A DNA stretch of 64,000 nt from an uncultured Alphaproteobacteria bacterium (GTDB taxonomy: Bacteria > Pseudomonadota > Alphaproteobacteria > Rhizobiales > Devosiaceae): assembly GCA_963699295.1 (NCBI GenBank), contig OY969432.1, positions 3,531,001 to 3,595,000 on the forward strand. The letters are read 5' to 3'. Position numbers and translations under genes: made by a program. A model generated the notes under the pieces. The model worked only from the letters and a program-made list of their open reading frames with translations. It made no database searches and was not told where the DNA came from. Each line of letters opens with the position of its first letter. Positions within the stretch are counted from its first letter, which is position 1. This document shows, in pieces, positions 6,252 through 24,681 of this stretch.

Positions 6252-6255
6252 CAAA

Positions 6256-7685: not shown

Positions 7686-7687
7686 GC

Positions 7688-8545: not shown

Positions 8546-8549
8546 GACC

Positions 8550-9647: not shown

Positions 9648-10501
9648 CAACCCCTGAGCAGACCCTCACCGACCAGGTCGTCGCCAGTTTCGACAAGGCC
9701 GACAATCCCCGCCTGCGCCAGGTCATGCAGTCGCTGGTGCGCCATCTGCACGCCTTCGCGCTCGACGTCGAACTCTCGATGCAAGAGTGGGAGCTGGCCA
9801 TTGGGTTCCTGACCCAGACCGGCCATATGTGCGACGACAAGCGCCAGGAGTTCATCCTGCTGTCCGACACGCTCGGCCTTTCCATGCTGGTGGATGCAAT
9901 CAATCACCGCTCCATCGAGGGGGCGACCGAAACCACCGTGCTCGGCCCCTTCTATGTGCCCCCACTCAAGGTGCTGGCCGCGGATAGTGATATTTCGGGC
10001 AGTGCCGAAGGCACGCCCATGCATGCTTCCTGCCGCGTGGTCAGCGCCGATGGACAGCCATTGGCCAACGCCTGGGTCGATGTCTGGCAAGCGGATGATG
10101 ACGGCTATTACGATGTGCAGCGGCCGGGACAGGAAGAAAACCTGCGGGCGCGCTTCCAGACAGATGCCGAGGGCAGGTTCTCTTTCTGGTCGATCGTGCC
10201 GACCGCCTATCCAATTCCCACGGATGGGCCGGTTGGAAAGATGTTGCAGTCGGCTGGTCGCCATCCCTATCGGCCGGCCCATATTCACTTCATGATCGGC
10301 AAGGAGGGCTTTGACACTCTTGTCACGCACCTCTTCATTGATGGCGACGACTATCTCAAAAGCGATGCCGTCTTTGGCGTCAAGGACCAGCTCATCATCC
10401 AACTGATCGATGCCGAGGCCGGCTGGAACGGCGGTGGCGAACTGGTTGGGGCGCACAAGAAGCTCTCCCATGAGTTTGGACTGCGTCCCAGTCAGTCCTG
10501 A
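9644..10501 (+). CDS. hydroxyquinol 1,2-dioxygenase (intradiol ring-cleavage dioxygenase)
   Basis: 285 aa. Has the intradiol core motif GRHPYRPAHIHFMI and the N-terminal helical domain typical of hydroxyquinol/catechol 1,2-dioxygenases. ATGA overlap with the upstream permease. Confidence 0.85.
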   Translation: MTTPEQTLTDQVVASFDKADNPRLRQVMQSLVRHLHAFALDVELSMQEWELAIGFLTQTGHMCDDKRQEFILLSDTLGLSMLVDAINHRSIEGATETTVLGPFYVPPLKVLAADSDISGSAEGTPMHASCRVVSADGQPLANAWVDVWQADDDGYYDVQRPGQEENLRARFQTDAEGRFSFWSIVPTAYPIPTDGPVGKMLQSAGRHPYRPAHIHFMIGKEGFDTLVTHLFIDGDDYLKSDAVFGVKDQLIIQLIDAEAGWNGGGELVGAHKKLSHEFGLRPSQS

Positions 10502-10578: not shown

Positions 10579-10929
10579 CGTGGTTCTCGGGTAACACGGC
10601 ACGCGCGATGCCATCGACGGCCAAGGCCCACGTCATGGGGCGCACCCATGGTTAAGATCAAGGGGCCGGCTGCGCGGGGGGCGGCCAGGGTGGCGCGGCA
10701 GTAGCTGGCCGAGACTGCTCGCCTCTAGTGGCCCGGGCGTTGTTGCCGCATGAACTAACTGAATGAGCGGGCCTGGACAATGGCGCTGAGGTTTCGATCA
10801 GAATCGCGTCTTAAAACCTGATGAAATTTTCAGGTTTATGCATAAAGCAGACACATGTGTGCAGGCTTGGCGTGCATGAAGATCCCAGTATGTGTTCAGG
10901 GACGCAACAGCTCCCTTTCCTCTCCTCGG

Positions 10930-10969
10930 AAAAAACTATGGCCGGCGGTTTCTCAAAAGACCGCCGGCC
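10930..10969 (-). terminator. rho-independent terminator downstream of the P-type ATPase
   Basis: On the minus strand, GGCCGGCGGT-loop-ACCGCCGGCC is followed by ATAGTTTTTT. Confidence 0.75.
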
Positions 10970-11027
10970 ACTTTGTATTTGAAGTTTATTCCCCTGCGGT
11001 GGGAACGGGGGCTGGTCCGGTTAGACA

Positions 11028-13070
11028 TCACGCATTGGCCGGCTGCCGGAACCAGGTCTTGGTGCTCTGGCCGAACGAACGAGCGCCTTGCAACATGGTC
11101 TGGCCGGGCACCAGTCGTGCCGAATTCAGGATGAAGGCCAGTTCCGACCCCGTATGGATCATGGCCGCTTCCACGGGACCGATGAGGCCGGTCATTGCCG
11201 CGGCAATGCCCAGGACATCGACGATCACCGTTCCGGCAAAATTGAACCAGATCACCCGGCGCGTCCGGCGCGCCAGATGTACGGTTTCTGCAAAGCGCAT
11301 GAGGTCATTGCCGAGGAGGACGATGTCGGCTTTCTCGCGGGCAACTTCGGTGCCAGAGCCCATGGCGATACCTACGGAGGCGGTGGCAAGAGCCGGTGCG
11401 TCGTTGACGCCGTCGCCGACCATGGCGACGGTGCGGCCCGAGGCCTTGACGGCCTGGATGCGCTGGAGTTTATCGGAGGGAAGCAGACCCGCTTCGACAT
11501 GGGTGATGCCCAGATCTGCGGCAACGCTGGCGGCAACCTGCTCGGTGTCACCGGTCAGCAATTGTACATCGATGTTCATCTGCTTGAGACGCTCGACGGC
11601 ACGATGGGCTTCGGGACGGATCTGGTCCTCGATGATGATATGGCCAAGCAGGCGTCCCTGGCGCGCGACAAAGACGCGCGTGCCGGCGAACTCGCTTTCC
11701 GCGGGCAGGTTCCCGATGGCATTTTCAGTCATCCAATCCGAATTGCCGATGAGGATGTCGCCCTGGACATCGCTGGCCGCAATGCCGCGTCCCGGAACAT
11801 AGCGGAAGCCGCTGGCATCGTGAGGCTGGATTTCAAGATTGGCGGCATGGGCGATGATTGCCTTCCCCAAGGGGTGCTCGGATAGCGCTTCGGCCGTTGC
11901 CGCCGCGCGGAGAATGTCCTGGATGGATGCATCGCCCACCGGGAGAACATGGCTCACTTCGGGCTGGCCAAACGTAAGGGTGCCGGTCTTGTCGAGGACG
12001 ACGGTATCGACCTTGCCCAGCGTCTCAAGGTGAATGCCGCCCTTGATTATGGCGCCCATCTGCGCGGCACGGCCGATACCGCCAAGGATGGCGAGTGGGG
12101 TACCCGCCGCGACTCCGCAGGCGCCGGCCACGACGATCACGGCAATAGTGGAATTAACGTCGCCCCCGGTGATCCAGTATTCGAAGGCGGCAAAGCCGAG
12201 CGCAACATAGACGATGTATCCGGCAAGACGATCGGCCAGGCGCTGGACCGGCGCGCGGGAGCGTTCGGCCTCTTCGACGGTTTCAAGAATCTGGCCGTAG
12301 CTGGTGGCGCGACCAACGCGCTCGGCGCGGATCTCGATGGCCCCGGACTGATTGATGGTGCCGGCATAGGCAAAGCTGCCGGCGACCTTTTCGACTGGCA
12401 TGGATTCGCCGGTGATGCGGGATTCGTCGACAAACGAATTGCCGGAAACGACAGGGCCGTCAACGGGAACGCGGGCGCCAGGGGCCACCACGACGATGCT
12501 TCCAAGGGAGACATCGCCAATGGCGGCGGTGACGACCTGGCCGTCGCGGCGCATCTGCACTTCGTTGGGCAGCAGAGCCATGAGATCGCGAATGGCGCGC
12601 CGGCCACGCTCCAGCGTCATGCCTTCAAGGGTTTCGGCGATCAGCACAAAGAAGGTGATGATGAGGGCGACGAAGAAGTAGCCCGTATAGGCGGCCGCAA
12701 TGACGGCGATGCCCATGGAAAGTTCCATGGTCATGCGCCGCTTGCGCAGGCTTTCCCAAGCCTCCTCGAAGAGCGGCCAGCCGCCAATGACAAGGCCAAT
12801 GACGCCGTACCAGGAGAAGCTGAGATAGAGCTCATCGGCGAAGCTGACATAGGAATGGTCGGGCAATTGCAGCCACACGGCAAGGGCGCACAGACCCGTC
12901 AGCGCAATGCGGAATACTTCCACCGGGCCAAAGGCATGGCTGTGGTGGTGGCCATGGTCGTCATGATGATCATGATGATCATGATGATGATTTGGGTGAT
13001 GATCGTGATGCTGGTGACCATGATGGTCATGGCCATGATCGTGCCGGTCTGGGTGCTGGTGGGTGCTCAT
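11028..13070 (-). CDS. heavy-metal P1B-type ATPase with His-rich N-terminus
   Basis: Motifs TGES (ITGESMPVEK), DKTGTLT, SEHPLGKAI and GDGVNDAPAL are present. The N-terminus is HQHPDRHDHGHDHHGHQHHDHH.... Start set at ATG 13070 (MSTHQH) behind AGGAGGA. Confidence 0.9.
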   Translation of the reverse strand: MSTHQHPDRHDHGHDHHGHQHHDHHPNHHHDHHDHHDDHGHHHSHAFGPVEVFRIALTGLCALAVWLQLPDHSYVSFADELYLSFSWYGVIGLVIGGWPLFEEAWESLRKRRMTMELSMGIAVIAAAYTGYFFVALIITFFVLIAETLEGMTLERGRRAIRDLMALLPNEVQMRRDGQVVTAAIGDVSLGSIVVVAPGARVPVDGPVVSGNSFVDESRITGESMPVEKVAGSFAYAGTINQSGAIEIRAERVGRATSYGQILETVEEAERSRAPVQRLADRLAGYIVYVALGFAAFEYWITGGDVNSTIAVIVVAGACGVAAGTPLAILGGIGRAAQMGAIIKGGIHLETLGKVDTVVLDKTGTLTFGQPEVSHVLPVGDASIQDILRAAATAEALSEHPLGKAIIAHAANLEIQPHDASGFRYVPGRGIAASDVQGDILIGNSDWMTENAIGNLPAESEFAGTRVFVARQGRLLGHIIIEDQIRPEAHRAVERLKQMNIDVQLLTGDTEQVAASVAADLGITHVEAGLLPSDKLQRIQAVKASGRTVAMVGDGVNDAPALATASVGIAMGSGTEVAREKADIVLLGNDLMRFAETVHLARRTRRVIWFNFAGTVIVDVLGIAAAMTGLIGPVEAAMIHTGSELAFILNSARLVPGQTMLQGARSFGQSTKTWFRQPANA

Positions 13071-13189
13071 CCTATCCTCCTGTGGAACAGGCTCACTCAC
13101 GGCCTGGCTAGTGTCGGGGAGAATGAGTTGAGGATCGCGCATAATCCTGCACGATCCTACCAGGTTTTACGCCGATTTCGAGCGCAGGC

Positions 13190-13675
13190 TTAATTCAGGC
13201 CGGCAAAGGGATCGAAGGAGACATAGGTCTCGTGGCAGGAGGTGCAGGTCTTGGCCACTTTGTCCCATTCCGCCTGGAATGCCTCGACCGTCGTGGCCTC
13301 GGATGCCCGGCGGGAGTTGTCGGCCGTATCGCGCACCAGCTTGCGGAAGGCTGGCAGATCGTCCCAAATCTGCGCCGCGGCCGTGGTTTCAATGCCATCG
13401 ATAGCAGCGCCGTCGAGCGGCCTGGTTTCGGGCGGGAACAGCAGGGCAAAGGCATCAAGCGATGACGCGGCGGCGTGAGCCAGGTCGTAAAGCTCGTACG
13501 AGTACTCGGGCTCGGTCAGCCGCTCGTCGATCATGGTCTGGATAGAGTCGAGCTGGCTCATCAGGCCGCGGCGCGCTTCGATCATGGCGCCGGCCTCCGA
13601 ATTCACCTGTTGCGACTGGACGGGCAGGCAGGCAAGGGCGAGTGCCGCGATACACAACGTGGGCCGGATCATCAT
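13190..13675 (-). CDS. class II cytochrome c (cytochrome c-prime / c556 family)
   Basis: Signal peptide, a predicted helical body, and a single heme motif CTSCH about 15 residues from the C-terminus. Start chosen at MMIRPTLCIAALALA. Confidence 0.7.
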   Translation of the reverse strand: MMIRPTLCIAALALACLPVQSQQVNSEAGAMIEARRGLMSQLDSIQTMIDERLTEPEYSYELYDLAHAAASSLDAFALLFPPETRPLDGAAIDGIETTAAAQIWDDLPAFRKLVRDTADNSRRASEATTVEAFQAEWDKVAKTCTSCHETYVSFDPFAGLN

Positions 13676-13767
13676 CAACTCCCAGTATTTTGCGGGGAGC
13701 AGACATGGGGCCGAAGCGGAATTCCTGCACAAAAGGCGCAGGATATTGCCAGCCTTGGCCAGCGGGA

Positions 13768-14265
13768 TCACTTTTCGCCTTCGAGCTCGTCATCCTGCGG
13801 GCGCCATGTGGTCTTGCTGCGGGCGGGGGCGTCATTGATGCCCAGGCTCGCCACCACGCCTTCGGTGTCGGCGACCAGGTCCGCAATGGTGTAGGATTCG
13901 AGCACGCGGGTGAAGGCGCGCATGGCTTCTCCCAGGACGGTCTCGTAGACGCATGCCGCGCCAAGCGGGCAATGCGCACACTTCTCGCGGGCGCATTCGG
14001 TGAGGTCGAAGTCGTCCTCTGTGACCCGCAGAACGTCGATGAGGCGGATTTCATGGGCCGGAGCGCCGAGACGTACACCGCCATTGCGACCGCGCACGGT
14101 TTCGAGCAGCCCGCTACGTCCGACCGGAACCAAAATCTTGAACAGGAACATTTCGGAGACGCCAAAGGCGTTTCCAATGTCCCGGATGCGGCTAAGACCG
14201 GTACGGTTGGCCGCGCAGTACATCAGTGCCCGCACCGCGTAATTGCTCTGTTTCGATAGGCGCAT
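13768..14265 (-). CDS. Rrf2-family transcriptional regulator (NsrR/IscR-like, probable Fe-S)
   Basis: N-terminus MRLSKQSNYAVRALMYCA... and a cysteine cluster C-x5-C-x2-C-x5-C (TECAREKCAHCPLGAAC). Confidence 0.85.
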   Translation of the reverse strand: MRLSKQSNYAVRALMYCAANRTGLSRIRDIGNAFGVSEMFLFKILVPVGRSGLLETVRGRNGGVRLGAPAHEIRLIDVLRVTEDDFDLTECAREKCAHCPLGAACVYETVLGEAMRAFTRVLESYTIADLVADTEGVVASLGINDAPARSKTTWRPQDDELEGEK

Positions 14266-14292
14266 GCGGCACAGATTCTCCTAGCAGAGAAG

Positions 14293-14925
14293 CTATATGA
14301 TCGGCAACACGCTCGCAACGCCGGCCTGATAGAGCGAGGTCAGTCCGACCCCTGCCAGGATGCCGCCGCACACGCGCGCGTTAACGTAGAGCCGGTCGCC
14401 ATGCCAGGACGCATAGGCTGCCCACATGGCGCCCCAGGCCACGAGAATCTGCACGATGGCAAAGCCCAGCAGGTAGCCTTGGAGTGAGTTGTTTTCGCTG
14501 CCGATGATGGCCTGTGAATAGGCAAGCCCATGAAGGGCCCCTGCAGCCAGGAAGGTCCATTTGTGCCAGCGGCCAGAGTCATCGCGGCCCCAGGCGAGGT
14601 AGCCGCCGATCAGGATGGCACTGATCGGCACCATCCATTCGGAGGGCTGGAGCTGGGCGCTGCTGGCATTGAGTAGGCAACCACCAACGGTGCCGACCAC
14701 GAACCAGACGGGCAGCGCGAAGCCGCCCTGCGAGACGGCGGTGAGCACGCCCACAGCGACGATGAAGGCGATATGGTCTGCAGCGATGACGGGATGGGCA
14801 AGGCCCGATAGCAAACCCTCGCCAAAGCCGATCGGCAGATTGCCGCCCAGCGCATGGTGGGCAAATGCTTGGGTGCAGAAGGCGAAGAGCAGGACGGGGC
14901 TCAAGGCCAGTTTCAAATATCGCAT
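14293..14925 (-). CDS. HupE/UreJ-family Ni/Co transporter
   Basis: Signal peptide ending ...AFA followed by HHALGG. Contains the GLAHPV..ADHIAFIVAVGVL motif and about 6 TM segments. Start at ATG 14925 behind GGGAGG. Confidence 0.8.
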   Translation of the reverse strand: MRYLKLALSPVLLFAFCTQAFAHHALGGNLPIGFGEGLLSGLAHPVIAADHIAFIVAVGVLTAVSQGGFALPVWFVVGTVGGCLLNASSAQLQPSEWMVPISAILIGGYLAWGRDDSGRWHKWTFLAAGALHGLAYSQAIIGSENNSLQGYLLGFAIVQILVAWGAMWAAYASWHGDRLYVNARVCGGILAGVGLTSLYQAGVASVLPII

Positions 14926-15489
14926 TGCTACCTCCCGACACGCGGCAATCGTGCGTATGCGCATTTTGCGCAGGACGACCATCCTCACACTGCCCGAGAG
15001 ATCAGTGTCAAACCTGCACGCCATCGTCGCTGGCCTGTCTAAAACCACCGCTATGGGGCATTTCGGTCGAATCCGGATCTTCTAAGCTATTCCCGATCGA
15101 CTGCCGAAAGGGGCTCGGCGTCGTGGCTACCGGACGGCGCCAGGCCATGAGGCGGCCGATCTTTTGCGCATCACAAAACATTTGTGCGGGTTTGTTTTTT
15201 CTGCGCAGGAATACTGGAGAATATGAGCGGACCCCTAGTCTGATTGATAGTTTTGGCAGGACCTTTACAAGTTTTCTCCAAATATAATATTTATCCCGAA
15301 GCGGGTAGTGTGTACTAGCCTAGAATTTCTGGAGCATATTGGAAAATTATAATATCAGGATGAATTAGGTTATATAACACTACAAATCTATTGTGCGAAA
15401 CATGCAGAAATTGCGCGTGGATTCTGCCGGAAGCGGCCGTTCTTCGGTGCCCATACTCGCGACATTAGCACTAGAAGGAGGAGAGTTCG

Positions 15490-16602
15490 GTGTTAACCTC
15501 AAGAGCGGCATGCCTGATTTCGGCACTTGCCATGGCTGGGACGCTTGCCTGCGTTCCTGTCTTTGCACAAAGTGCCGGCGCTTCGGCCAATAGTGTCGAA
15601 TGTATTCCATTGAAGGAGCAGTATCCGGACCTGGGTACGCCTCAGTCTGTTTCGGCCAGCCGAGACTTTGTGACGGTCTGGGCTTCTTTCGACTTGCCTG
15701 GTGGCGGTTGCGGCTATTCGTCGGCCCAAGAGCATTATGATGCACTGCTCGCCGATACCAAGTCGCGCGGTGGTCCGACCCAGCACACCTTCGACACGCT
15801 TCCCGACTGGAGCGGCCATTTCGGTACCGAAAACAATACCGGCGAAGTGGCAATCGTGGGTCGCAGCTCCTCAACTGAAGGCATGGCTGTCCGCCTGAAG
15901 CCGGAAGCACGCGAGGTATTCCTGCGTGACGCGGACATGTGGAAGAAAGACCACGCCATCGATCCGCTGTCCTTCTGCCTGCCGCCCAACTACCCGCGCT
16001 GGCACACCGAATATGGCTATCGTGAGCACTTCCTGCAGCCCGGCAAGGCGCTGCTCGGTTCGGAAATGATGAATCAGTTCCGTCGCGTCTTCACCGACGG
16101 CCGTCCGCTGCCTTCGGAAGAATGGCTGACTAAGGAATGGCTTGGCTATTCGATTGGTTTCTGGGACGGCGACGTTCTAACCATCCTGACCAAGGGTATC
16201 CGCGAGGGCATCCTGCAGCGCAACATGCCGCGTCAGACCGACGAGATGGAAGTTGTCGAGCGTTGGCGCCTGGTGGAAGTGCCTGAAGGTCTTGAGATCA
16301 AGGCTCACTCGGCTGGCCCTGGTGCCTTTACGCCAAAGCCCGGCGATCTGCGCATGGAAATCGAGATCACCATGTACGATCCGACCTTCGTCGAGCCCTG
16401 GCACACTGTTGCTGCCTATTACAAGGAAGACAACTCCACGCCAGAGCTGAAGGAAATCGTCTGGCCGCACCAGTGGGACTGCGAAGAAGGCTCCAACTGG
16501 TTCATCAATGCCGAAGGCGTTGTCAGCCAATACGCTCCTGGCGAGAAGCCCGACATCACCAATCCCGACATGTGGTTCGACGAACGCTACGTGCACCAGT
16601 AA
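15490..16602 (+). CDS. secreted hypothetical protein (370 aa)
   Basis: GTG start after GGAGGAG and a signal peptide (...ACVPVFAQ). Internal blocks FCLPPNYPRW..., RRVFTDGRPLP and GYSIGFWDGDVLTILTKG recall an uncharacterised periplasmic family that I cannot name. Confidence 0.6.
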   Translation: MLTSRAACLISALAMAGTLACVPVFAQSAGASANSVECIPLKEQYPDLGTPQSVSASRDFVTVWASFDLPGGGCGYSSAQEHYDALLADTKSRGGPTQHTFDTLPDWSGHFGTENNTGEVAIVGRSSSTEGMAVRLKPEAREVFLRDADMWKKDHAIDPLSFCLPPNYPRWHTEYGYREHFLQPGKALLGSEMMNQFRRVFTDGRPLPSEEWLTKEWLGYSIGFWDGDVLTILTKGIREGILQRNMPRQTDEMEVVERWRLVEVPEGLEIKAHSAGPGAFTPKPGDLRMEIEITMYDPTFVEPWHTVAAYYKEDNSTPELKEIVWPHQWDCEEGSNWFINAEGVVSQYAPGEKPDITNPDMWFDERYVHQ

Positions 16603-16628
16603 GCGCGCGAAACCAGAGGACAACTCTT

Positions 16629-17039
16629 ATGTTCAAGAAGACTATCGCAATGGGCCTGATCGCGGGCCTGTCCATGGGCGCCTTCGCAGTCCCTGCCAGC
16701 GCGCACCACTCGGCCGCCATGTTCAACCCGGACGCGCAGATGACGCTCACCGGCACGGTGACCAAGTTCGATTATCTCAATCCGCATTCCTGGCTCTACA
16801 TGAATGTGAAGAACGAGGACGGCACGGTTACGGAATGGGGCTTCGAGCTCGACGCTCCGCCGCGCCTGCGCCGCGTTGGCGTTGGTCCGCAGAAATGGGT
16901 CGAAGGTGACGTGATCCTGGTGCGGACCAATCCCCTGCGCGACGGGCGTCCCGCCGGTTCGCTGGTGGGTGCACACCGCTCCGATGGCGACAAGCACGGT
17001 AACACCACCGAGATCCCGGAACCCCCGGTCATCGAATAG
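16629..17039 (+). CDS. secreted small protein, DUF6152-like
   Basis: Signal peptide ...AVPASA, then HHSAAMFNPD...LTGTVTKFDYLNPHSW. Matches my recollection of DUF6152 proteins (unverified). Confidence 0.65.
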   Translation: MFKKTIAMGLIAGLSMGAFAVPASAHHSAAMFNPDAQMTLTGTVTKFDYLNPHSWLYMNVKNEDGTVTEWGFELDAPPRLRRVGVGPQKWVEGDVILVRTNPLRDGRPAGSLVGAHRSDGDKHGNTTEIPEPPVIE

Positions 17040-17104
17040 TCGATCCAAGCAAGAAAAGGTGAAGGACGCTCAAGTCCTTCACCGCACGTTCAAGGAGGAA
17101 AAAC

Positions 17105-18244
17105 GTGACACTTTCAAAGCTTTCAAAGCTTTCAAAACTGGCATTGGCAACGGCCCTGATCGGTTCGACAGCCATTTCGGGTGCCCATGCATTCGGCGAA
17201 GCCGGCCCGATTTTGCTGCGCGAAATGGGTGGCTTCCTGGTCGGCGTGACCGCCGAGGGCCCCAATGCCGAAGGCCACTACAACATCTCCGGTCAGAGCT
17301 ATGTCGAATTCGGCCTGACCGCCGAGCCCAAGTTGCCGCATTCGGTGATCCTCGTGCATGGCGGTGGCGGCCAGTCGTCCGACTGGTTCAGCACTGTTGA
17401 TGGCCGTGACGGCTGGCGCAGCTATCTGTTGGCAGCAGGCATCGACACCTACTGGATCGACCGTCCGGGGCTGGGCCGCTCGCCCTCCAATCCGAACTAT
17501 GGTCCGGAAAATGCCCGCGGCGTCGTTGGCGGCAGCAACTACCCGCTGATCTCGGGCCTCGCATCGTCCAAGCTGTGGCCGGATGCCAAGCCGATCGAAG
17601 GCGAATGGGACCGGGCAGCCTGGACTGCAGCCAACCAGGGTAACCAGGGCGTCATCAACTGGGTCGCCTCCTCGCCCGCAGGTCCCTATGGTGGCAATGA
17701 CCTTGCGCGCAAGAACATCTTGGAGCTGCTCGAAAAGGTCGGCCCGTCGGTGCTGTTTGCCCACTCGGCAGGCGTGGCATCGACCCTGCAGGCAACGCTT
17801 GCGGCCCCGGCCGGTGCCGTCAAGGGGCTCCTGATTTTTGAAGGCGGGGTCAATCTGTACGACCAGAACACGCTTGGCCATGCACAGTTCGAACCGGCGC
17901 TGGCCGCCGATTTCGCACCGGTCGATGTGGACGGTTGTCTGCTTCAGCCGGAAGGCGCGGTCAGCAAGCTGGCCAATCTGGCCGATACCCCGGTCACGAT
18001 CATCCGGTCCCAGTATGGCAACCAGACCGACGCCCAGTTCACGTGCGCCGTAAGGCAGCTCGAACAGGCTGGTGTCGAAGCCAAGTTCATCCAGATGAAC
18101 GACATCGGCTTCCCCGATGGCGGTCACTTCATGATGAGCGATACCAATAGCGGCGAAATCGCAACGGACGTCCTGGTGCCGGTCATTGCGGCGCTCCAGG
18201 GCGCGGGCGAACTGCCGGCCGAGTGGACCATCACGGCCGACTAG
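17105..18244 (+). CDS. secreted alpha/beta-hydrolase-fold protein
   Basis: GTG start after AGGAGG, with a signal peptide. Oxyanion-like VILVHGGGGQ and nucleophile-elbow-like FAHSAGV are present. Confidence 0.65.
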   Translation: MTLSKLSKLSKLALATALIGSTAISGAHAFGEAGPILLREMGGFLVGVTAEGPNAEGHYNISGQSYVEFGLTAEPKLPHSVILVHGGGGQSSDWFSTVDGRDGWRSYLLAAGIDTYWIDRPGLGRSPSNPNYGPENARGVVGGSNYPLISGLASSKLWPDAKPIEGEWDRAAWTAANQGNQGVINWVASSPAGPYGGNDLARKNILELLEKVGPSVLFAHSAGVASTLQATLAAPAGAVKGLLIFEGGVNLYDQNTLGHAQFEPALAADFAPVDVDGCLLQPEGAVSKLANLADTPVTIIRSQYGNQTDAQFTCAVRQLEQAGVEAKFIQMNDIGFPDGGHFMMSDTNSGEIATDVLVPVIAALQGAGELPAEWTITAD

Positions 18245-18251
18245 CCTGATT

Positions 18252-18284
18252 GCGCCGGCCGTCACCGGCCGGCGCGTTCTTTTT
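18252..18284 (+). terminator. rho-independent terminator after the hydrolase gene
   Basis: 10-bp GC stem GCGCCGGCCG/CGGCCGGCGC with a 4-nt loop, followed by GTTCTTTTT. Confidence 0.8.
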
Positions 18285-18414
18285 CCAACCAGTGTGACGC
18301 TGTCGGCGCCGGCCGGGAGGGCTGGCAGGACGAGCGGTTCTCCTCCCGGCCGCTGGCTCTACACGACGTGTTTTTCGGCGGGGAGCGTTTAATCAGCATT
18401 CGTTGAGGGATGCC

Positions 18415-18930
18415 ATGTACGAGTTTTCCTATTGGCTCAGCACCACGCCTGTAAGCCTTTCTCTGGCGCTGTCGGGATGGTTCATCCCGACCGCGCAGAT
18501 CATCCATATCCTGTCCATTGCGGCGTTGATCGGCTCGGTGCTGATAATCAACCTCAGGGTCCTGCGGGTGGGCAAGACCCATCCCGGTTTTGGCAATATC
18601 GTTGAGGGCTATGGGAACTGGTTCTGGGCGCCGCTCGGCGTGTTGCTCGCCAGCGGATTCATGCTGATCCTGGCCGAGCCCGAGCGTCAGCTCCTTGCCC
18701 TGTCTTTCTGGATAAAGATGGCACTGCTGATTGTCGCCTCGGCAATCTTTGCGCGGTTCCTGATGCGTCTCAAGCATGCCGAATTTGCCGATGGTGACTT
18801 CGTGTCGCCCAAGTACAAGGCCGCATCGGTGGCCAACCTCGTGCTGTGGGTCTGCATCATCTTCCTGGGGCGCTTCATCGCCTATGACGTACAGATCTGG
18901 GACAGCCTGTCCCCGATGGCCTATCTCTAG
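18415..18930 (+). CDS. integral membrane protein, DUF6644-like (paralog 1)
   Basis: About 4 TM segments. Shares ...H.L..A...G..L...LR..G... and the C-terminal W..II..GR.I.. pattern with the next gene. ATG 18415 follows GAGGGA. Confidence 0.6.
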   Translation: MYEFSYWLSTTPVSLSLALSGWFIPTAQIIHILSIAALIGSVLIINLRVLRVGKTHPGFGNIVEGYGNWFWAPLGVLLASGFMLILAEPERQLLALSFWIKMALLIVASAIFARFLMRLKHAEFADGDFVSPKYKAASVANLVLWVCIIFLGRFIAYDVQIWDSLSPMAYL

Positions 18931-18944
18931 AGAGGGTTTTTGCG

Positions 18945-19451
18945 ATGGATTTTCTTGTTTCTCTCGAGAGCAGCGCCTTTGCCGAGTGGCTGCAATTTTC
19001 TGCCTTTGCCTATCCAATGATTGAGTCGACCCATGTCTTGGGCGTGGCGCTGCTGTTCGGCACATTGCTGATCGTCGACCTGCGGCTTGTCGGCATCCGG
19101 TTGATGTCGCAGTCCATCAGTTCAATCACGCATGCGACGCTGAAATGGACCTGGCTCGGCTTTGCGCTGGCCCTCGTGACCGGGCTGATGATGTTCAGCG
19201 AGCGGGCGACGCACTACATCACCAATTTCGAGTTCCTCTCCAAGATGGGGCTGCTGGGGCTGGCGGGCGCCAACATGCTGGTCTTTGAATTCTTGACCCG
19301 CCGCAGTCTTGCGGCCTGGGATACCGGGCAGCCCATCCCGGGAAAGGTCAAGTTGGCAGGGTACCTGTCGCTGGCATTCTGGATCGGCGTGATCATCTTC
19401 GGTCGCCTCATTGGCTTTGCCGAGGCCCATGATCCGCTGGCCAGTTTGTGA
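18945..19451 (+). CDS. integral membrane protein, DUF6644-like (paralog 2)
   Basis: FAYPMIESTHVLGVALLFGTLLIVDLRLVG...WIGVIIFGRLIGF matches my recollection of DUF6644 proteins (unverified). Confidence 0.65.
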   Translation: MDFLVSLESSAFAEWLQFSAFAYPMIESTHVLGVALLFGTLLIVDLRLVGIRLMSQSISSITHATLKWTWLGFALALVTGLMMFSERATHYITNFEFLSKMGLLGLAGANMLVFEFLTRRSLAAWDTGQPIPGKVKLAGYLSLAFWIGVIIFGRLIGFAEAHDPLASL

Positions 19452-19506: not shown

Positions 19507-19827
19507 GGGGTTAGGCGGCATGGCAAGAGCGCCTTGCCCGTGCGCCGTGGCGCGTCACTCAGGGGGGTTTCAAGTGAGCTCGATCCTGGAGCCGGCCCGA
19601 TGAGACCGTGAGGGCTTCGCTCCCAACGGCATCCGTTCGCTACCTCAGCGAGTGAGCACGATGGCCGTGTGCCCGATCTGGCGAGGGGGAAGGCAGGACT
19701 ATGCCGAAATACCTGAAAGATTGTGCAGGTTTTAAGCGGGGCCCTGGGTCATCGTCGCTGCATACCGATTTCTGGCGGTTTGCCTGATTGGGCACCACAG
19801 CAGTGCGAGAGAAAAACGGGCCTGGTC

Positions 19828-20856
19828 ATGCGCATCGATATTGCTGGATTTACCCGCGGCTCGCACACCCTGGATCATCGCAGCGTCATGGACTTTTGCT
19901 GCCGCATGGACGCCCTTGGCTATGACGGCATCTGGTTCAACGAGTTCCATTTCCAGCGGCCGCCCGATCCCTACCCGTCAACCTTGCTGCTGGCTTCGGC
20001 GATCTTGGCCCGCACCGAGCGCATGCGCGTGGGTACCTCCATTATCGTGCTGCCGCTCTATCATCCTCTGCTGCTGGCCGAGCAGGTGGCGCAGCTTCAT
20101 CAACAAAGTGGCGGTCGATTTGACCTGGGCATAGGAAGGGGCGCCCATCCGTCAACGCTTGACGCATTGGGCATCCCGATTGCGGAAACGCGCGATCGTT
20201 TCGATCAGGCCCTGAAATTGATGCTGTCCGCCTGGGCGCAACCGACGCTGGTGCCTGCAGGCGGCATTTGGCCGGCGTCCAGTGTGCCGGTGGGCCCGTT
20301 GCTGCCGCCGGAAGAAAGGATTCCCGTCTATATTGCCGGTTCGACGCCTGAGACGATCGGCGTAGCCGTTGAACGCAATTTCCCCCTGCTGTTGAGCCTT
20401 GAGCCCAACGAGGCCCGCCAGCTCCGGATTCATGCCGAGCTCACGGGGTGCAGTGCCGGACGATACCCGGCGAACTTTTCCATCTCGCGTTATGTGATGA
20501 TCAACAAGACCAGAGCGGCCGCGCTTGCCGACGTGGAGGCATTGCTGCCCAGGCTGTACGAGCGTCGAGTGCACTACGCGCGCGTCCAAAATCGCCCATT
20601 GGATACCATCAAACCCTACGATCGCGACGATTTCCTTCGCGAGCAGATGATCGCGGGCGATGCTCAGGATTGCGTTGCCCAGCTGGCTGCTCTGCGGTGC
20701 GCCACCGGGATCGACAGCATCCGCCTGATCTTCAACTGTAACGGCGAAATTCCCCACGAGCAGGCCGATTTTATGGCCACACTCTTTGGGCGCGAAGCGC
20801 TGCCGGCGCTTCACGCTTTGCCAGCCCTCTCACCCGAAACGGAGACTTCCAAGTGA
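19828..20856 (+). CDS. LLM-class (luciferase-like) flavin-dependent oxidoreductase
   Basis: MRIDIAGF...LGYDGIWFNEFHF...RMRVGTSIIVLPLYHPLLLAEQVA is the typical luciferase-like monooxygenase N-terminus. Start moved to ATG 19828. Confidence 0.8.
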   Translation: MRIDIAGFTRGSHTLDHRSVMDFCCRMDALGYDGIWFNEFHFQRPPDPYPSTLLLASAILARTERMRVGTSIIVLPLYHPLLLAEQVAQLHQQSGGRFDLGIGRGAHPSTLDALGIPIAETRDRFDQALKLMLSAWAQPTLVPAGGIWPASSVPVGPLLPPEERIPVYIAGSTPETIGVAVERNFPLLLSLEPNEARQLRIHAELTGCSAGRYPANFSISRYVMINKTRAAALADVEALLPRLYERRVHYARVQNRPLDTIKPYDRDDFLREQMIAGDAQDCVAQLAALRCATGIDSIRLIFNCNGEIPHEQADFMATLFGREALPALHALPALSPETETSK

Positions 20857-21851
20857 CAATTAGGCCTGCCACCACTGCTTTTGTCCTGACGGCGGTCTGG
20901 ACAAGTCTTTTGAGCGGCACTTCTTCATTCGCCGAAGAGAAATACTCGACCTATGTTGACGACAATTGCGGCGTTGTCACCCATTATGACGCCGCACCGG
21001 AGCGGGCAGTGACCCTTTCCAACAACGCCACCGAACTCATGCTGGCGTTGGGGCTCGAAGACCGGATGGTGGGCACCTCCTACATGGCCAACCTGAAGAT
21101 CAGTCCGCAATATGAGGCAGCCTATTCCCAAATCCCGATCATCTCGCCACTGATTGCCACCACCGAGGAACTGATCGAGGTCGAAGCTGACTTTGTCTAT
21201 TCTGGCTATCCAGATGGGTTCAGTGAATCGCGCCACACGCGCGACCAGCTTCGTGACCTGGGCATGAAAACGCGACTGAACGTGGAGGGCTGCAACCTTG
21301 GCGTTTTTGGCTTTGGCGAGCTATTTGCTGAGATCGAAGCGGTCGCCGGCATTTTCGGCGTTGCCGATAAAGGCCGCGAAGTTGTCTCCGCTCTCCAGGC
21401 CCGCCTGGATGTCGTCCAGCAGAAACTCGAAGGCCGCGACCCGATCCCGGTATTCATCTATAATGGCGGTGACACCACGCCCAACGCCGTGCTTGGTCAC
21501 ACCCTTATGTCGCAAGCCGTCGCGGCCGCCGGTGGGAACAATATCTTTGCCGATGTTGCCAACCGATATGGACAGGTGAGCTGGGAACAGATCGCCGAAC
21601 GCGAACCCGAGTATATCGTGGTCTTCTATTCTGGCACCGCAGGGGGCCAGATTGTGGCCGACCCGGACAAGGAGCTTGGGCAGGCCCGGGTCGACATCCT
21701 TAGGGCAACCCCGGCCATTGCCCAGGTTCCGGCCATCCTCAACAACCGCTTCATCCTCATCAACTCCGTGCAGGGCCAGCCTGGTCCAAGCACTCTTGAC
21801 GCCGTGGAGGCCTTTGCAAAGGCCTTTCATCCGGCAGCCTTCAAGGAGTAG
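20853..21851 (+). CDS. ABC substrate-binding protein, FecB/BtuF (Peripla_BP_2) type
   Basis: 332 aa with a signal peptide. GTGA overlap with the upstream gene. It precedes a FecCD permease and a FepC-like ATPase. Confidence 0.75.
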   Translation: MTIRPATTAFVLTAVWTSLLSGTSSFAEEKYSTYVDDNCGVVTHYDAAPERAVTLSNNATELMLALGLEDRMVGTSYMANLKISPQYEAAYSQIPIISPLIATTEELIEVEADFVYSGYPDGFSESRHTRDQLRDLGMKTRLNVEGCNLGVFGFGELFAEIEAVAGIFGVADKGREVVSALQARLDVVQQKLEGRDPIPVFIYNGGDTTPNAVLGHTLMSQAVAAAGGNNIFADVANRYGQVSWEQIAEREPEYIVVFYSGTAGGQIVADPDKELGQARVDILRATPAIAQVPAILNNRFILINSVQGQPGPSTLDAVEAFAKAFHPAAFKE

Positions 21852-21857
21852 CTTTGC

Positions 21858-23027
21858 ATGAATTACCTTCTGCCGGAGCGCCTGGCGCGACCCGACCACG
21901 GCAAGCTGTTGGCGGCGCTGCGTTCTACAGCTGGTGCTCCGGCCGAAGGGATCCGTCTGGTTTCAACACCATCGCAGCACCAGGGAGGGAAGCTGCCTTA
22001 TGGGGTGGCTCTGGTTTGTCTGCTCATCATTCTGGTCGTTCTGGCGATCCTGGGCGTGATGTTTGGGTCCGTCTCCGTCCCGGCGCCAACCGCAATTGGC
22101 ATCCTCGTCAACTGGGTAACAGGGCAGGAGCTCATACCCGTCACATGGCGGGCGGTCTATGAGACCATCATCATCGAGACGCGCCTGCCCAGGGTGATCC
22201 TTGCCGCTGCCGTCGGTGCGACCTTGGCCGCAACAGGAATGACCATCCAGGCTGTCGTTCGCAATCCGCTCGCTGGCCCCAGTATTCTGGGGGTATCCAA
22301 CGGCGCTGCAGCCGGAGCGGTCATCGTCATGCGCTGGAGTCTTGTCGGACTGGGCGCATTCACCCTCTATATTTCCGCCTTCGCCGGTGCACTGGTCACT
22401 CTTCTCATGGTTTTTTGGGTGGCGCGGACCGGTGGCAGCATCACGCCGACGAGACTGGTTCTGGCCGGCATTGCCATGAGCGCGGTGCTCAATGCACTCA
22501 CCAGTCTTTTGGTGCTCACCTCTCCAGACCCACAACTGGCTTCACGCGTGTTGTTCTGGACTTTGGGGGGATTTGCTTCCGCTCAATGGAAACTGCTGCC
22601 GCTGCCGATCGCTGCAATGGTAATCGGCCTCGGCCTGATGCTGTTGCAGGCGCGAAGGCTCAACCTGCTCATGGCCGGGGACGAAAGCGCCACGGCGCTC
22701 GGGCTGGATGTGCACGGATTTCGCCGGTCCATGTTCTTGCTGACGGCTGCACTGACCGGCGTCATGGTGGCTGTCTCGGGGGTCATCGGTTTCGTGGGAT
22801 TGATTGTCCCCCACATTGTCCGGTTCATTGTGGGGGCCGATCACCGGCGGGGCCTACCTGCGGTGGCGTTGGTGGGAGCCTGCTTTACCGTAGCCGCGGA
22901 TCTGATTGCCCGTGCTGTGATCTCTCCTCTCGAGCTGCCTGTTGGCATCATCACCGCGTTGGTGGGTGGACCATTTTTCATCTGGTTGCTGCGTCGCGAC
23001 GCCAAGGGCCGGGAGCAGGGCGCGTGA
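21858..23027 (+). CDS. FecCD-family ABC permease
   Basis: Multi-TM protein with the FecCD-type pattern ...RLPRVILAAAVGATLAATG...NPLA.PSILGVS. The exact start is uncertain. Confidence 0.85.
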   Translation: MNYLLPERLARPDHGKLLAALRSTAGAPAEGIRLVSTPSQHQGGKLPYGVALVCLLIILVVLAILGVMFGSVSVPAPTAIGILVNWVTGQELIPVTWRAVYETIIIETRLPRVILAAAVGATLAATGMTIQAVVRNPLAGPSILGVSNGAAAGAVIVMRWSLVGLGAFTLYISAFAGALVTLLMVFWVARTGGSITPTRLVLAGIAMSAVLNALTSLLVLTSPDPQLASRVLFWTLGGFASAQWKLLPLPIAAMVIGLGLMLLQARRLNLLMAGDESATALGLDVHGFRRSMFLLTAALTGVMVAVSGVIGFVGLIVPHIVRFIVGADHRRGLPAVALVGACFTVAADLIARAVISPLELPVGIITALVGGPFFIWLLRRDAKGREQGA

Positions 23028-23800
23028 CACAGATTCAAGCTGGGACATTGATGCTCGACAATGTCAGCTATGCCGTCAACGGCAAGTCCCTGGTGCGGGA
23101 CATTTCCCTCAAGGTGGCTCCCGGCGAGATGCTTGGACTCCTTGGCCCCAATGGGGCGGGCAAGTCGAGCCTTTTGCGCACCATCTATCGCACCAATCGT
23201 CCGAGTTCGGGGCGCGTCTTCGTCAACGATCAGGATATCTGGCAGCAGCCGACCAACTGGAGCGCCCGTCACGTAGGAGCAGTTCTGCAGGACATGCCGG
23301 CCGATTTCCCGCTCACCGTCAACGATGTGATTGCCATGGGGCGCTCTGTTCACAAGCGTCTGCTTGAACCCGACAACGACCATGATCGCTCGCTGATTGC
23401 AGCTGTATCGGCCCTTCTGCAACTGGAGCCCCTGGCAATGCGGCTATTTCGCTCGCTTTCCGGCGGAGAACGCCAAAGAGTGCTGGTGGCGCGCGCCCTT
23501 GTGCAACAGCCATCGGTACTGGTGCTCGATGAGCCCACCAATCACCTCGATATTCACCACCAGATCAACCTCCTGCGTTTCGTGCGAAACCTTGGCATCA
23601 CCGTCATCGCCGCACTGCATGACTTGAATCTCGCGGCCATGTTCTGCGACCGGCTCTGTCTGCTCAACAATGGCCGGATGGAGGCATGCGGCACGCCCGA
23701 AACCGTACTCTCGACGGAGAACCTTTCGGCGGTCTTTCGCATCGACGCCACAATTACCCGCAACCCCCGCACCAGTACCGTCTGGATCATGCCAGCTTAG
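23024..23800 (+). CDS. ABC ATP-binding protein (FepC/FecE/BtuD-like)
   Basis: Walker A GPNGAGKSSLL, signature LSGGERQRV, Walker B LVLDEPTNHLD. GTG 23024 overlaps the permease stop; ATG 23051 is an alternative start. The long upstream ORF extension (22415-) lies inside the permease gene. Confidence 0.9.
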   Translation: MTQIQAGTLMLDNVSYAVNGKSLVRDISLKVAPGEMLGLLGPNGAGKSSLLRTIYRTNRPSSGRVFVNDQDIWQQPTNWSARHVGAVLQDMPADFPLTVNDVIAMGRSVHKRLLEPDNDHDRSLIAAVSALLQLEPLAMRLFRSLSGGERQRVLVARALVQQPSVLVLDEPTNHLDIHHQINLLRFVRNLGITVIAALHDLNLAAMFCDRLCLLNNGRMEACGTPETVLSTENLSAVFRIDATITRNPRTSTVWIMPA

Positions 23801-23811
23801 GGAAGGCGCCT

Positions 23812-24585
23812 ATGCAATCCACTGTCTCTTCCAAGCTGGCCATCGTTCTGCTGTCCAAATCGGCCTTGGCTGCTGCCCCTATTGCCGAGATGAAACGTCT
23901 CGCTGCCTGTATGCAGGAACGCGGGCTCGCCCCCAGGGTCGTCTACGCATTCTCCGAGCAAGGGGAGCCGTCCTTGCTAGACACCCTGCTGACCCTGCGC
24001 AGGCCGGCCATCAACAAGGTGCTGATTATCCCCCTCATCCTGCCAAAGGAAACCAGTTTTCAGAATTGGCTGACGCGCTCCCTTTGTCGTTGGCAAAGCG
24101 ACCAGCCGGAAGCATGGCCCGAACTGCACATCGGCGCGAGCTTGGGCGAGAGTCCCATGCTGCCAGAGATGCTCGAAAACCTTGTGGTACGCGGTGGAAC
24201 CCAACCGGTCCTGCCAACTGAAAGCGTCAAGCCCGCAGGATCGATTATTCCAGCCCAGAAGCGGCGTGTTCTGGTTTGCCAGGGCGGTGCATGCAATGCC
24301 GCTGGCGCCAATGCCGTCTGGAGCCACCTCAGAAACCAGCAGCAGCATCGAAATCTCAGAAATACCGGCGAAGGCGTCGTGAGCGCCATGTCGACCTGTT
24401 TGGGGCCTTGCAGTCTAGCGCCAGTATTGCAGGTGTTTCCCGAAGGCACTTATTATGGTGGTGTGGATGAGGCTACTATCGACCAGATCGTAGCCGAGCA
24501 CTTGCTGGAAGGTAAGGTCGTGGAAGCTTATGCCTATGCGCCCACCGGCAAAAAGCAGTTCTTGCGTCCAGCGACAGGTCCGTAA
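23812..24585 (+). CDS. CbiX-like (sirohydrochlorin chelatase fold) domain fused to thioredoxin-like [2Fe-2S] ferredoxin
   Basis: The N-terminal half (LAIVLLSKSA...RVVYAFSEQGEPSL...VLIIPLILP) looks CbiX-like. The C-terminal half (VLVCQGGACNAAGA...MSTCLGPCSLAPVLQVFPEGTYYGGV) is a thioredoxin-like ferredoxin. Confidence 0.65.
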   Translation: MQSTVSSKLAIVLLSKSALAAAPIAEMKRLAACMQERGLAPRVVYAFSEQGEPSLLDTLLTLRRPAINKVLIIPLILPKETSFQNWLTRSLCRWQSDQPEAWPELHIGASLGESPMLPEMLENLVVRGGTQPVLPTESVKPAGSIIPAQKRRVLVCQGGACNAAGANAVWSHLRNQQQHRNLRNTGEGVVSAMSTCLGPCSLAPVLQVFPEGTYYGGVDEATIDQIVAEHLLEGKVVEAYAYAPTGKKQFLRPATGP

Positions 24586-24681
24586 GATCTACTTGTTTTT
24601 CTCCGCCTACGGCAAGTCTGTGCACCTGCGACAGCCGCTGCAGCGTGAAGATCCTGAAATTGCTGCAGGTTGCGGGGCCGC

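Follow-up and report, generated by a model that had tools for sequence, protein, structure and literature searches.

A widespread envelope gene module with DUF6152 and DUF6644 proteins probably marks an undescribed periplasmic metal-dependent system

This report concerns a cluster of five genes, g1 to g5 (Table 1), in a 64,000-nt stretch of DNA (hereafter the window) from an uncultured alphaproteobacterium of the Devosiaceae (GenBank assembly GCA_963699295.1, contig OY969432.1, positions 3,531,001 to 3,595,000 of the forward strand). The cluster consists of one copy of an envelope module that is widespread but unstudied, together with one inserted accessory enzyme, and the module probably marks an undescribed periplasmic metal-dependent system. 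The conserved unit is an operon of four genes, in the order g1, g2 (DUF6152), g4 (DUF6644a), and g5 (DUF6644b), and not the five-gene cluster of the first-pass annotation, made from the sequence alone, which had counted a hydrolase gene, g3, among the members: four of the genes are indeed co-conserved, but a g3-type hydrolase was found in none of 80 metagenome loci anchored on DUF6644. The same annotation had recognized no characterized function for the encoded exported and membrane proteins, and our literature and family searches agree, DUF6152 and DUF6644 not being mentioned in the literature searched. It had also ventured a role in periplasmic processing or uptake, related to metals or to lipids; a metal role is now the best-supported reading, while no finding speaks for lipids.

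Conservation of a four-gene unit

The evidence for the module comes from two scans, the second of which is the reverse of the first. In the scan anchored on g1, with one genome per species (43 loci) and with neighbors recognized by tblastn with the window proteins, a DUF6152 gene directly adjoins the g1 relative in most of the loci, the carriers being Gammaproteobacteria (Candidatus Rariloculus and others), Terriglobia/Acidobacteria, Burkholderiales, and Alphaproteobacteria. Many of these loci possess several paralogous g1/DUF6152 pairs, up to four or five per locus, and for most of the pairs in Gammaproteobacteria and Acidobacteria, DUF6644 genes are missing from the vicinity. One telling case is a fusion protein of 377 amino acids (aa) in locus L047, in which residues 25-112 are DUF6152 and a g1-like part comes after them, suggesting that g1 and DUF6152 cooperate physically. 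The reverse scan, of metagenomes, was anchored on the b-type DUF6644 and took the best 80 loci. The tandem DUF6644 pair is present in 72 of them, g1 and DUF6152 are present in 13 of 16 loci with a length of 10 kb or more and in 17 of 26 with 7 kb or more, and the gene order is almost always g1, DUF6152, DUF6644a, DUF6644b, on one strand and with small gaps. Another source of examples is the Sphingomonadales, where tblastn with g1 found plasmids encoding a g1-like protein (~26% identity) together with DUF6152. In Sphingobium (L057) and Novosphingobium (L058), g1-like and DUF6152 genes stand beside a DUF6644a/b pair, and in Croceibacterium (L056) they stand beside a TonB receptor gene. Overall, the pairing of the g1 and DUF6152 genes is almost obligate, and the four-gene operon is tightly packed in many soil bacteria. 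The genes thus do recur together in other genomes, and the grouping first proposed from the window survives the comparison to that extent.

Some further fusions call for comment. Locus L047 has DUF6152-g1 fusions at 13768-14901 and 3564-4787, with proteins of 377 aa and 407 aa, respectively. An apparent g1-DUF6152 fusion in locus L001 (P0080, 285 aa, 7594-8858) is probably a frameshift or assembly artifact, and it was rejected because the g1 of L001 runs across two frames, and its DUF6152 portion has neither a signal peptide nor the His-His motif described below. The 377-aa fusion of L047 is free of such faults. An apparent esterase-g1 fusion (P0481) was not used either, being a chimeric-looking sequence with a C terminus that seems out of frame.

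The predicted His-His N terminus of DUF6152

The g2 protein matches the Pfam model of DUF6152 (PF19649) with 95.7 bits (E 1.8e-27, cut-off 27). Two histidines directly follow the signal peptide in every one of the 111 distinct DUF6152 sequences from all loci, and a hydrophobic 18-mer stands just before them in 103 of the 111. At the junction, position -1 is Ala, Ser, or Gly in 102 of 109 sequences, and position -3 is Ala, Val, Ser, or Gly in 103 of 109, a predicted classical (AXA-type) signal-peptidase I site, the predicted cleavage leaving His-His as the free N terminus of the mature protein (111 residues). Within the mature protein, H1, H2, and H28 (of an NPH motif) are 100% conserved, followed by E48 (95%), W45 (94%), and S3 (89%). 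An AlphaFold2 (AF2) model (predicted local distance difference test, pLDDT, 89) is a five-stranded oligonucleotide/oligosaccharide-binding (OB) fold with a helix between strands 3 and 4, and a Foldseek search with this model returned generic OB domains only (E ~1e-3 to 1e-2), the best being lysyl-tRNA synthetase (LysRS), single-stranded DNA-binding protein (SSB), and PriB.

These features recall the copper histidine brace, which is defined by an N-terminal His exposed by cleavage and by a second His, every known class of brace needing the removal of a signal peptide to unmask the amine (PMC10952591). In its geometry, copper is held by the NH2 and N-pi of His1 and by N-tau of the second His, as a T-shaped N3 site (PMC10952591). 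At the level of sequence, DUF6152 shares the N-terminal His, predicted to be exposed by signal-peptide cleavage, and both H28 and H2, each conserved throughout, are candidates for the second His. A metal site in DUF6152 is very likely, since the predicted exposed His-His, the invariant H28, and the near-invariant W45 and E48 parallel the brace and the CusF/SilF sites. Copper is a candidate metal by analogy with the brace, and nickel or cobalt are candidates because a HupE gene is a recurrent neighbor (see below).

The large partner g1

The g1 protein has no match in Pfam or NCBIfam. Its homologues number ~125 in a word-indexed search, every one labeled hypothetical, and a profile search of 1.84 billion representatives yielded, at E<=1e-3, 8,688 clusters (50% identity), a number taken as a lower bound for the superfamily. 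Ten diverse members of the family also have no Pfam model in a relaxed scan, the sole signal in such scans being a weak match to DUF3298 in 7 of 22 members (best E 0.0023). By the number of these clusters, and because its diverse members lack a Pfam model, g1 can be assigned to a large unannotated family. The conserved-looking blocks that the first-pass annotation had picked out in g1 are conserved in the homologues, with the consensus FCLPPNFPRW, VFTDGRxHP, and GFWDGDVLT. The mean column identity of the g1 alignment is 23%. In a set of 47 diverse members, G109, C163, G219, W225, L230, D297, and C331 never vary, and no His is invariant; C163 and C331 probably form a periplasmic disulfide. The AF2 model of g1 (pLDDT 80; predicted template-modeling score, pTM, 0.82) has a helical N-terminal part and then eight beta-strands. 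The structural comparison suggested earlier for this protein was carried out with this confident model, and Foldseek found no fold match in PDB at E<=1e-3, lipocalins and avidins appearing only among the very weak matches; a profile search likewise gave no sequence match in PDB.

Two variants of the family depart from the usual architecture. One is a fusion of 765 aa (P0411) in which a SnoaL-like (NTF2-fold) domain precedes a canonical g1 domain. Another is a subfamily of ~460 aa with an N-terminal DUF4168 domain (P0354, and the genes at 8275-9669 of L050 and 8537-9922 of L053), which is paired with orthologues of the g3 esterase and has no DUF6152 nearby. This subfamily shows that the link between g1 and the esterase exists independently of DUF6152.

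The DUF6644 membrane pair

The g4 and g5 proteins match the Pfam model of DUF6644 (PF20349) with 42.7 bits each (cut-off 27); 12 of 12 relatives match the model as well. They had been described as two paralogous proteins with four transmembrane (TM) segments, and the paralogy is clear (27% identity, E 7e-16), the a and b types forming separate clades. As to the segments, the description holds for g4, with four hydrophobic segments in the hydropathy profile, but only partly for g5, in which two segments rise above the threshold and four are counted by homology. Among 152 distinct sequences (g5 numbering), the most conserved residues are G80, F97, K100, and R154 (99% each), H30 (98%), W146 and G153 (97% each), and R47 (95%), H30 being the single conserved histidine, located in TM1. 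The matches to CopD (PF05425) suggest a relation at the superfamily level only: g4 scores 18.8 bits (E 0.0022), below the cut-off of 32.1, and g5 gives no match, so that neither belongs to CopD by the gathering cut-off, while 3 of 12 DUF6644 relatives match CopD (best E 3.8e-6) and 7 of 12 match DUF2214, for which the proteins of the window likewise score under the Pfam cut-off. That DUF6644 may hold heme b is our assumption, drawn from HemJ and from the conserved TM1 His; a literature search on HemJ and CopD gave no relevant paper.

An inserted esterase

The g3 protein scores 32.7 bits against the Pfam model Abhydrolase_6 (cut-off 26.3), and its sequence matches in PDB include 1QLW (E 1.7e-10) and SulE entries (E 1e-8). 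The SulE/esterase 713 family comprises exported enzymes with a Ser-Glu-His triad and without the G-x-S-x-G motif (PMC10356948). In g3, which has no G-x-S-x-G either, the triad can be aligned: FAHSAG falls on THSAS of SulE (Ser), IFEGG on AYEPA of SulE (Glu), and, in a weak second segment, GGHFMM on NSHMMM of esterase 713 (His). Three clear signal peptides had been reported for the cluster. Those of g1 and g2 do have a clearly hydrophobic N-terminal segment, but the segment of g3 is weaker, its export being supported by the exported relative SulE (PMC10356948).

Orthologues of g3 occur in the cluster only in near relatives of the window such as L049, in Pelagibacterium, and in Euryhalocaulis, and in Pelagibacterium the order of genes is hydrolase (abH), DUF6644a, DUF6644b, g1, DUF6152. 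The g3 gene is a lineage-specific accessory that has been inserted between DUF6152 and DUF6644a, together with a hairpin (Table 1). Other esterases have been met in similar places. In L050 and L053, the orthologue of g3 adjoins a g1-like protein of 461-464 aa. An unrelated esterase, of the COesterase family, occupies the same position after DUF6152 in a member of the Rhodobacterales (L046), a COesterase gene adjoins the module in L132 and L134, and one is found near a g1-like gene in L030. Because g3 orthologues adjoin g1-like genes and COesterases stand beside the module, the esterase is best described as a recurrent, non-obligate companion of the module, with members of two unrelated families.

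Layout of the cluster and its upstream region

Table 1. Features of the window in and around the five-gene cluster (positions in the window).
Feature	Position	Strand	Description
g1	15490-16602	+	370 aa, exported, GTG start, no Pfam model
g2	16629-17039	+	136 aa, DUF6152; signal peptide 16629-16703, predicted mature protein 16704-17036, starting His-His-Ser
g3	17105-18244	+	379 aa, Abhydrolase_6, exported carboxylesterase of SulE/esterase 713/BDI_1566 family
g4	18415-18930 (open reading frame opens at TTG 18403)	+	DUF6644 a-type 4-TM membrane protein
g5	18945-19451	+	DUF6644 b-type 4-TM membrane protein
Intrinsic-terminator-like hairpin and T-run	18251-18286	+	between g3 and g4
Divergent intergenic region, HupE gene (-)/g1 (+)	15049-15489		441 nt, AT-rich
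Class II cytochrome c gene (cytochrome c'-like)	13190-13771	-	Pfam Cytochrom_C_2
Rrf2-family regulator gene	13768-14265	-	Pfam; divergent from g1
HupE/UreJ Ni/Co permease gene	14293-14925	-	Pfam; divergent from g1

The five open reading frames (ORFs) of the first-pass annotation were found where it had placed them, with gaps of 26, 65, and 14 nt, and its family assignments are those of Pfam (DUF6152 for g2, the alpha/beta hydrolase family Abhydrolase_6 for g3, and DUF6644 for g4 and g5). The GTG start of g1 has a ribosome-binding site, AGGAGG, ~8 nt upstream. For g4, the ATG at 18415 (giving 171 aa) is more likely the true start than the upstream TTG, because GAGGGA precedes it and because gene calls on near-identical contigs, which were found in soil metagenomes, agree. 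A relative with proteins 91% identical (L049) possesses the same five-gene block between other flanks, with a LysR gene upstream. One soil metatranscriptome contig of 193 nt is 100% identical to part of g1 (16114-16306 of the window), which is minimal evidence of transcription of g1 in soil, as DNA carry-over is possible, and this single contig is too little to define the operon structure from expression data.

The strong terminator that had been noted after g3 (at 18252-18284) is real in the sense of a terminator-like hairpin, with a stem at 18251-18276 of 11 pairs, 10 of them G-C, and a 4-nt loop, followed by a T-run; it folds with -26.5 kcal/mol (z -3.7), an energy matched by 0 of 200 shuffles. 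The sharp drop in guanine plus cytosine (GC) content upstream of g1 was measured as well (0.375 at 15200-15399 versus ~0.6 in the flanks), but the AT-rich stretch does not mark the entry into the cluster: it is the divergent intergenic/promoter region shared by the HupE gene and g1. A compositional island was considered and rejected, since the five genes match the flanks in GC content. In this intergenic region, one promoter-like site was recognized (15264-15291), not above chance; no Rfam match was found; and the leader upstream of g1 folds no better than shuffles (z 0.02). The ~130 nt before g1 are well conserved between the window (15360-15489) and L049 (4110-4240), with the shared blocks GGTTATATAA, TCTGCCGGA, CCCATACTC, and TTAGCACTA-AAGGAGGAG, suggesting a conserved promoter and a long leader. 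A perfect palindrome, CACAAAACATTTGTG, is located on the HupE side (15172-15186), with a copy carrying two mismatches on the g1 side (15381-15395). As an operator it was rejected, the count being within chance expectation and the copy being absent from the conservation with L049.

Neighboring genes

The cluster had been thought to follow directly after a separate Ni/Co/NO module. The adjacency is correct, but the dividing line is doubtful, because class II cytochromes c and HupE recur near the module elsewhere. The cytochrome encoded in the window scores 45.7 bits (cut-off 26.5), with CTSCH near the C terminus, and its gene lies 1.7 kb upstream of g1. In the DUF6644-anchored metagenome loci, a class II cytochrome c gene, recognized by hidden Markov model (HMM), is found within 300 nt of the module in 10 of the 80 loci and, if the count is limited to loci of 7 kb or more, in 7 of 26, and further class II cytochromes c are encoded in L046 (three) and L058 (one). 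The unrelated loci with an adjoining gene of this kind are L046, L058, L062, L085, L087, L103, L108, L126, L136, and L138. The cytochrome c' of the window, earlier labeled NO-related, may belong to the module as a redox partner. Four lineages (the window, L049, L046, and L065) have a HupE or HupE_UreJ_2 gene no more than ~5 kb from the module, and in L049 it lies three genes away from the five-gene block. Whether the Rrf2 regulator and HupE are members of the system is uncertain. The HupE/UreJ permease has a predicted mature N terminus that is also His-His, like that of DUF6152 (...TQAFA/HHALGG, the slash marking the predicted cleavage).

Farther from g1, the window encodes an ATP-binding cassette (ABC) transporter of the LIV type and then an intradiol dioxygenase of the catechol/hydroxyquinol type (9644-10501), together spanning 4938-10501. 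The same dioxygenase family is found near the module in Pelagibacterium (L045) and in Rhodobacterales (L046), the latter again with a LIV-type ABC transporter, indicating that synteny is not confined to the five genes. A P-type ATPase of 704 aa (11028-13142, minus strand), presumably a heavy-metal pump, has a long His/Asp-rich N-terminal tail (HHGHQHHDHHPNHHHDHHDHHDDHGHHHSH). An ORF of 315 aa on the opposite strand to this gene (10855-11802, plus strand) has no Pfam match and is probably a spurious high-GC ORF. Immediately downstream of the cluster, the stretch 19723-24600 encodes a luciferase-like monooxygenase (LLM), an importer of the Peripla_BP_2/FecCD/ABC type, and a thioredoxin-like protein of the 2Fe-2S kind. 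In Sphingobium (L057) and in L033, too, the module has an LLM gene and a sulfonate-scavenging context at its flanks. A wider survey, with Pfam, of 417 ORFs (in three batches) found no constant extra partner family among the neighbors. Families present at low frequency are pyrroloquinoline quinone (PQQ) dehydrogenases, TonB receptors, amidases, esterases, and DAO, and others seen are regulators of the TetR, LysR, and MarR families, cytochrome P450, major facilitator superfamily (MFS) transporters, Ferric_reduct, and PepSY_TM.

A putative metalloprotein and the alternatives

As to what the module does, our leading explanation, tentatively held, is that it specifies a metalloprotein of two subunits in the periplasm, along with a membrane accessory resembling CopD. 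In this proposal, DUF6152 would be the small subunit, with a histidine-brace-like site formed by the N-terminal amine, H1, H2, and H28, capped by W45 and E48, and holding most likely copper, or possibly nickel or cobalt. The larger and more variable g1 would be the other subunit and would supply the substrate-binding part, or specificity, which could account for genomes with many paralogous g1/DUF6152 pairs. The DUF6644a/b heterodimer would serve as a membrane accessory of the CopD superfamily, for metal loading or for electron relay, the latter for example through heme held by the single invariant TM1 His of each subunit, and the class II cytochrome c would be an optional redox partner. The SulE/esterase 713-type esterase would be a local add-on, and its insertion in the operon, as an exported enzyme, suggests that the local substrate, or its source, may be an ester. 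The logic of the subunits appears enzyme-like because DUF6152 is highly conserved while g1 is variable and expanded into paralogues, and because of the associations with esterases and with the SnoaL-like domain; genes in the vicinity for TetR, LysR, and MarR regulators, PQQ dehydrogenases, P450, amidases, and TonB receptors lend it further support. A more specific form of the proposal, that g1/DUF6152 represents an unrecognized class of periplasmic metalloenzymes, made of an OB-fold subunit with a brace-type copper (or nickel) site, a specificity subunit of novel fold, a CopD-like heterodimer, and cytochrome c, and spread over thousands of protein clusters in soil and marine bacteria, has a substantial chance of being right, although one well below even.

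Several observations weigh against the metalloprotein. Save for D297, E257, and the probable disulfide, g1 has no invariant His or Met and no obvious catalytic residue, and the CopD similarity of the DUF6644 proteins of the window itself is below the Pfam cut-off. The flanks of the operon are heterogeneous, with no constant downstream pathway, which fits a housekeeping role such as metal uptake, and in the window the neighbors include genes of metal homeostasis (HupE, the P-type ATPase, and the FecCD-type ABC importer). In addition, the characterized bacterial histidine-brace proteins other than lytic polysaccharide monooxygenases (LPMOs) are mostly copper carriers and not enzymes (PMC10952591). 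We infer everything in the proposal beyond linkage, fusion, invariant residues, and predicted folds.

A serious rival, in our judgment somewhat less likely, is uptake of the CopC/CopD kind, that is, pure metal acquisition and trafficking by the logic of CopC/CopD or YcnI/YcnJ. DUF6152 would capture Cu(II), or nickel or cobalt, in the periplasm, DUF6644a/b would import it, and the cytochrome c would reduce it; g1 would be a co-chaperone, a metallophore-binding protein, or a reductase, and the esterases would free metal from ester-containing chelators brought in by TonB receptors. Proteins with an N-terminal His encoded beside CopD-type genes are a known pattern of copper uptake (PMC12362106, PMC10952591), the CopD matches among the DUF6644 relatives reach E 3.8e-6, and the CusF and SilF proteins, the sole OB-folds devoted only to metal binding, are periplasmic chaperones (PMC10656224). 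The same metal-related genes of the window (the P-type ATPase with its His-rich tail among them), the presence of HupE near the module in four lineages, and Ferric_reduct, PepSY_TM, and TonB receptors among the neighbors are all in keeping with uptake, as is a self-contained four-gene operon in heterogeneous flanks. Less easily reconciled with it are the g1/DUF6152 pairs of Gammaproteobacteria and Acidobacteria, most of which have no DUF6644 nearby, and the four or five paralogous pairs per locus, unusual for metal chaperones. Moreover, the large, universally co-inherited partner g1 has no conserved metal ligands, there is no constant metal-sensing regulator (LysR, TetR, MarR, and Rrf2 have all been seen), and an ion path would be expected to have more than the one invariant polar residue that DUF6644 has inside the membrane. 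We favor the metalloprotein over a pure importer because it explains the pairs without DUF6644, and because of the contrast between a conserved DUF6152 and a variable g1, the regulators of catabolic type, and the esterase and SnoaL-like associations.

A second alternative dispenses with metal, and we consider it quite improbable. The module would be a periplasmic binding or shuttle system for small organic molecules (hydrophobic or ester-derived, perhaps), with g1 as a beta-rich ligand binder, DUF6152 as an OB-fold adaptor, the DUF6644 pair as the inner-membrane acceptor, and a structural or docking role for His-His. The eight-stranded region that follows the helical part in the g1 model, the lipocalins and avidins among its very weak Foldseek matches, the SnoaL-like domain fused to one g1, and the TonB receptors, MFS transporters, and esterases among the neighbors would all suit such a shuttle. 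It is, however, made less likely by the three invariant histidines of DUF6152, which, with His-His exactly at the signal-peptidase site in all 111 sequences and with the conserved Trp and Glu, are hard to explain in a metal-free protein; it also leaves the recurrent cytochrome c neighbor unexplained, and g1 has no significant structural match to any binding-protein fold. Finally, that the cluster is no functional unit but five unrelated exported or membrane proteins brought together by chance is hardly credible, even if esterase orthologues in other genomes lack DUF6152 and DUF6644 neighbors and a strong hairpin separates g3 from g4, since for four of the five genes it is contradicted by reciprocal co-occurrence across phyla, a conserved order, and fusion proteins, and even the orphan esterase orthologues adjoin genes of the g1 family.

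Significance and comparison with known systems

Should the metalloprotein proposal be correct, two DUFs and one large family without a Pfam model (at least 8,688 clusters) would gain a function, and DUF6152 would be a new scaffold both for metal sites with an N-terminal His and for OB-fold metal binders. To our knowledge, histidine-brace and other N-terminal-His metal sites occur on few folds, those of LPMOs, PmoB, CopC, PmoF, YcnI, and X325. The DUF6152, DUF6644, and g1 families are common in soil Alphaproteobacteria, in Acidobacteria, and in sediment Gammaproteobacteria, and cultivable carriers are available in Pelagibacterium mangrovi WS-203, Croceibacterium atlanticum 26DY36, Novosphingobium humi, and Sphingobium sp. 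TomTYG65.

In organization, the module can be compared with MsrP/MsrQ, in which MsrP is a molybdenum enzyme and MsrQ belongs to the Ferric_reduct family: both are a self-contained periplasmic metalloprotein (proposed here) with a small heme-type membrane partner, found in varied contexts. There is no homology between the two systems, and heme binding by DUF6644 is hypothetical. The inserted esterase is distantly similar to SulE, esterase 713, and BDI_1566 (E 1e-8 to 1e-10), and differs from SulE in its location within a DUF6152/DUF6644 operon, which has not been reported for the latter.

With LPMOs and with the PmoB site of the particulate methane monooxygenase (pMMO), DUF6152 would share an N-terminal His unmasked by secretion and a second conserved His, as well as the logic, proposed here for the module, by which external donors supply electrons to an oxidative site in the periplasm or outside the cell (PMC10952591). 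It differs from both in fold (OB versus immunoglobulin/fibronectin-like), has no sequence relation to them, and has an invariant His also as its second residue. By the model, DUF6152 shares an exported five-stranded OB-fold with CusF and SilF, which are described as unique among OB-fold proteins in having metal binding as their sole task (PMC10656224). The site in these proteins is made of a His before beta2 and of a Trp and a Met in beta3 (His63, Trp71, and Met74 in SilF; PMC10656224), and H28, W45, and E48 of DUF6152 are in comparable places, as judged from sequence position and secondary structure and not from superposition. Unlike the His-Trp-Met-Met site of CusF/SilF, however, DUF6152 has no conserved Met and has the N-terminal His-His instead, a ligand set that would suit the harder ions Cu(II), Ni(II), and Zn(II), not Cu(I) or Ag(I). 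Nor is there detectable sequence similarity, Foldseek having given generic OB domains only, and no CusCBA or SilCBA efflux genes were seen among the surveyed neighbors.

In its logic, the module resembles CopC/CopD and YcnI/YcnJ of Bacillus subtilis, CopC and YcnI, with their N-terminal-His sites, being typically encoded beside CopD genes (PMC12362106). The likeness consists of a small exported beta-protein, with an N-terminal His freed by cleavage (predicted in the case of DUF6152), encoded beside a membrane protein of the CopD superfamily. The differences concern each of the components: DUF6152 models as an OB-fold and not as the cupredoxin-like fold of CopC or the DUF1775 fold, has no Pfam match to CopC, and carries His-His and one more invariant His; in the membrane, two 4-TM paralogues scoring under the Pfam cut-off for CopD form the partner; and the large, obligate periplasmic partner g1, of novel fold, has no counterpart in CopCD. 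Thus, even if the module is merely a copper importer of the CopCD kind, it still represents a new architectural variant of bacterial metal uptake.

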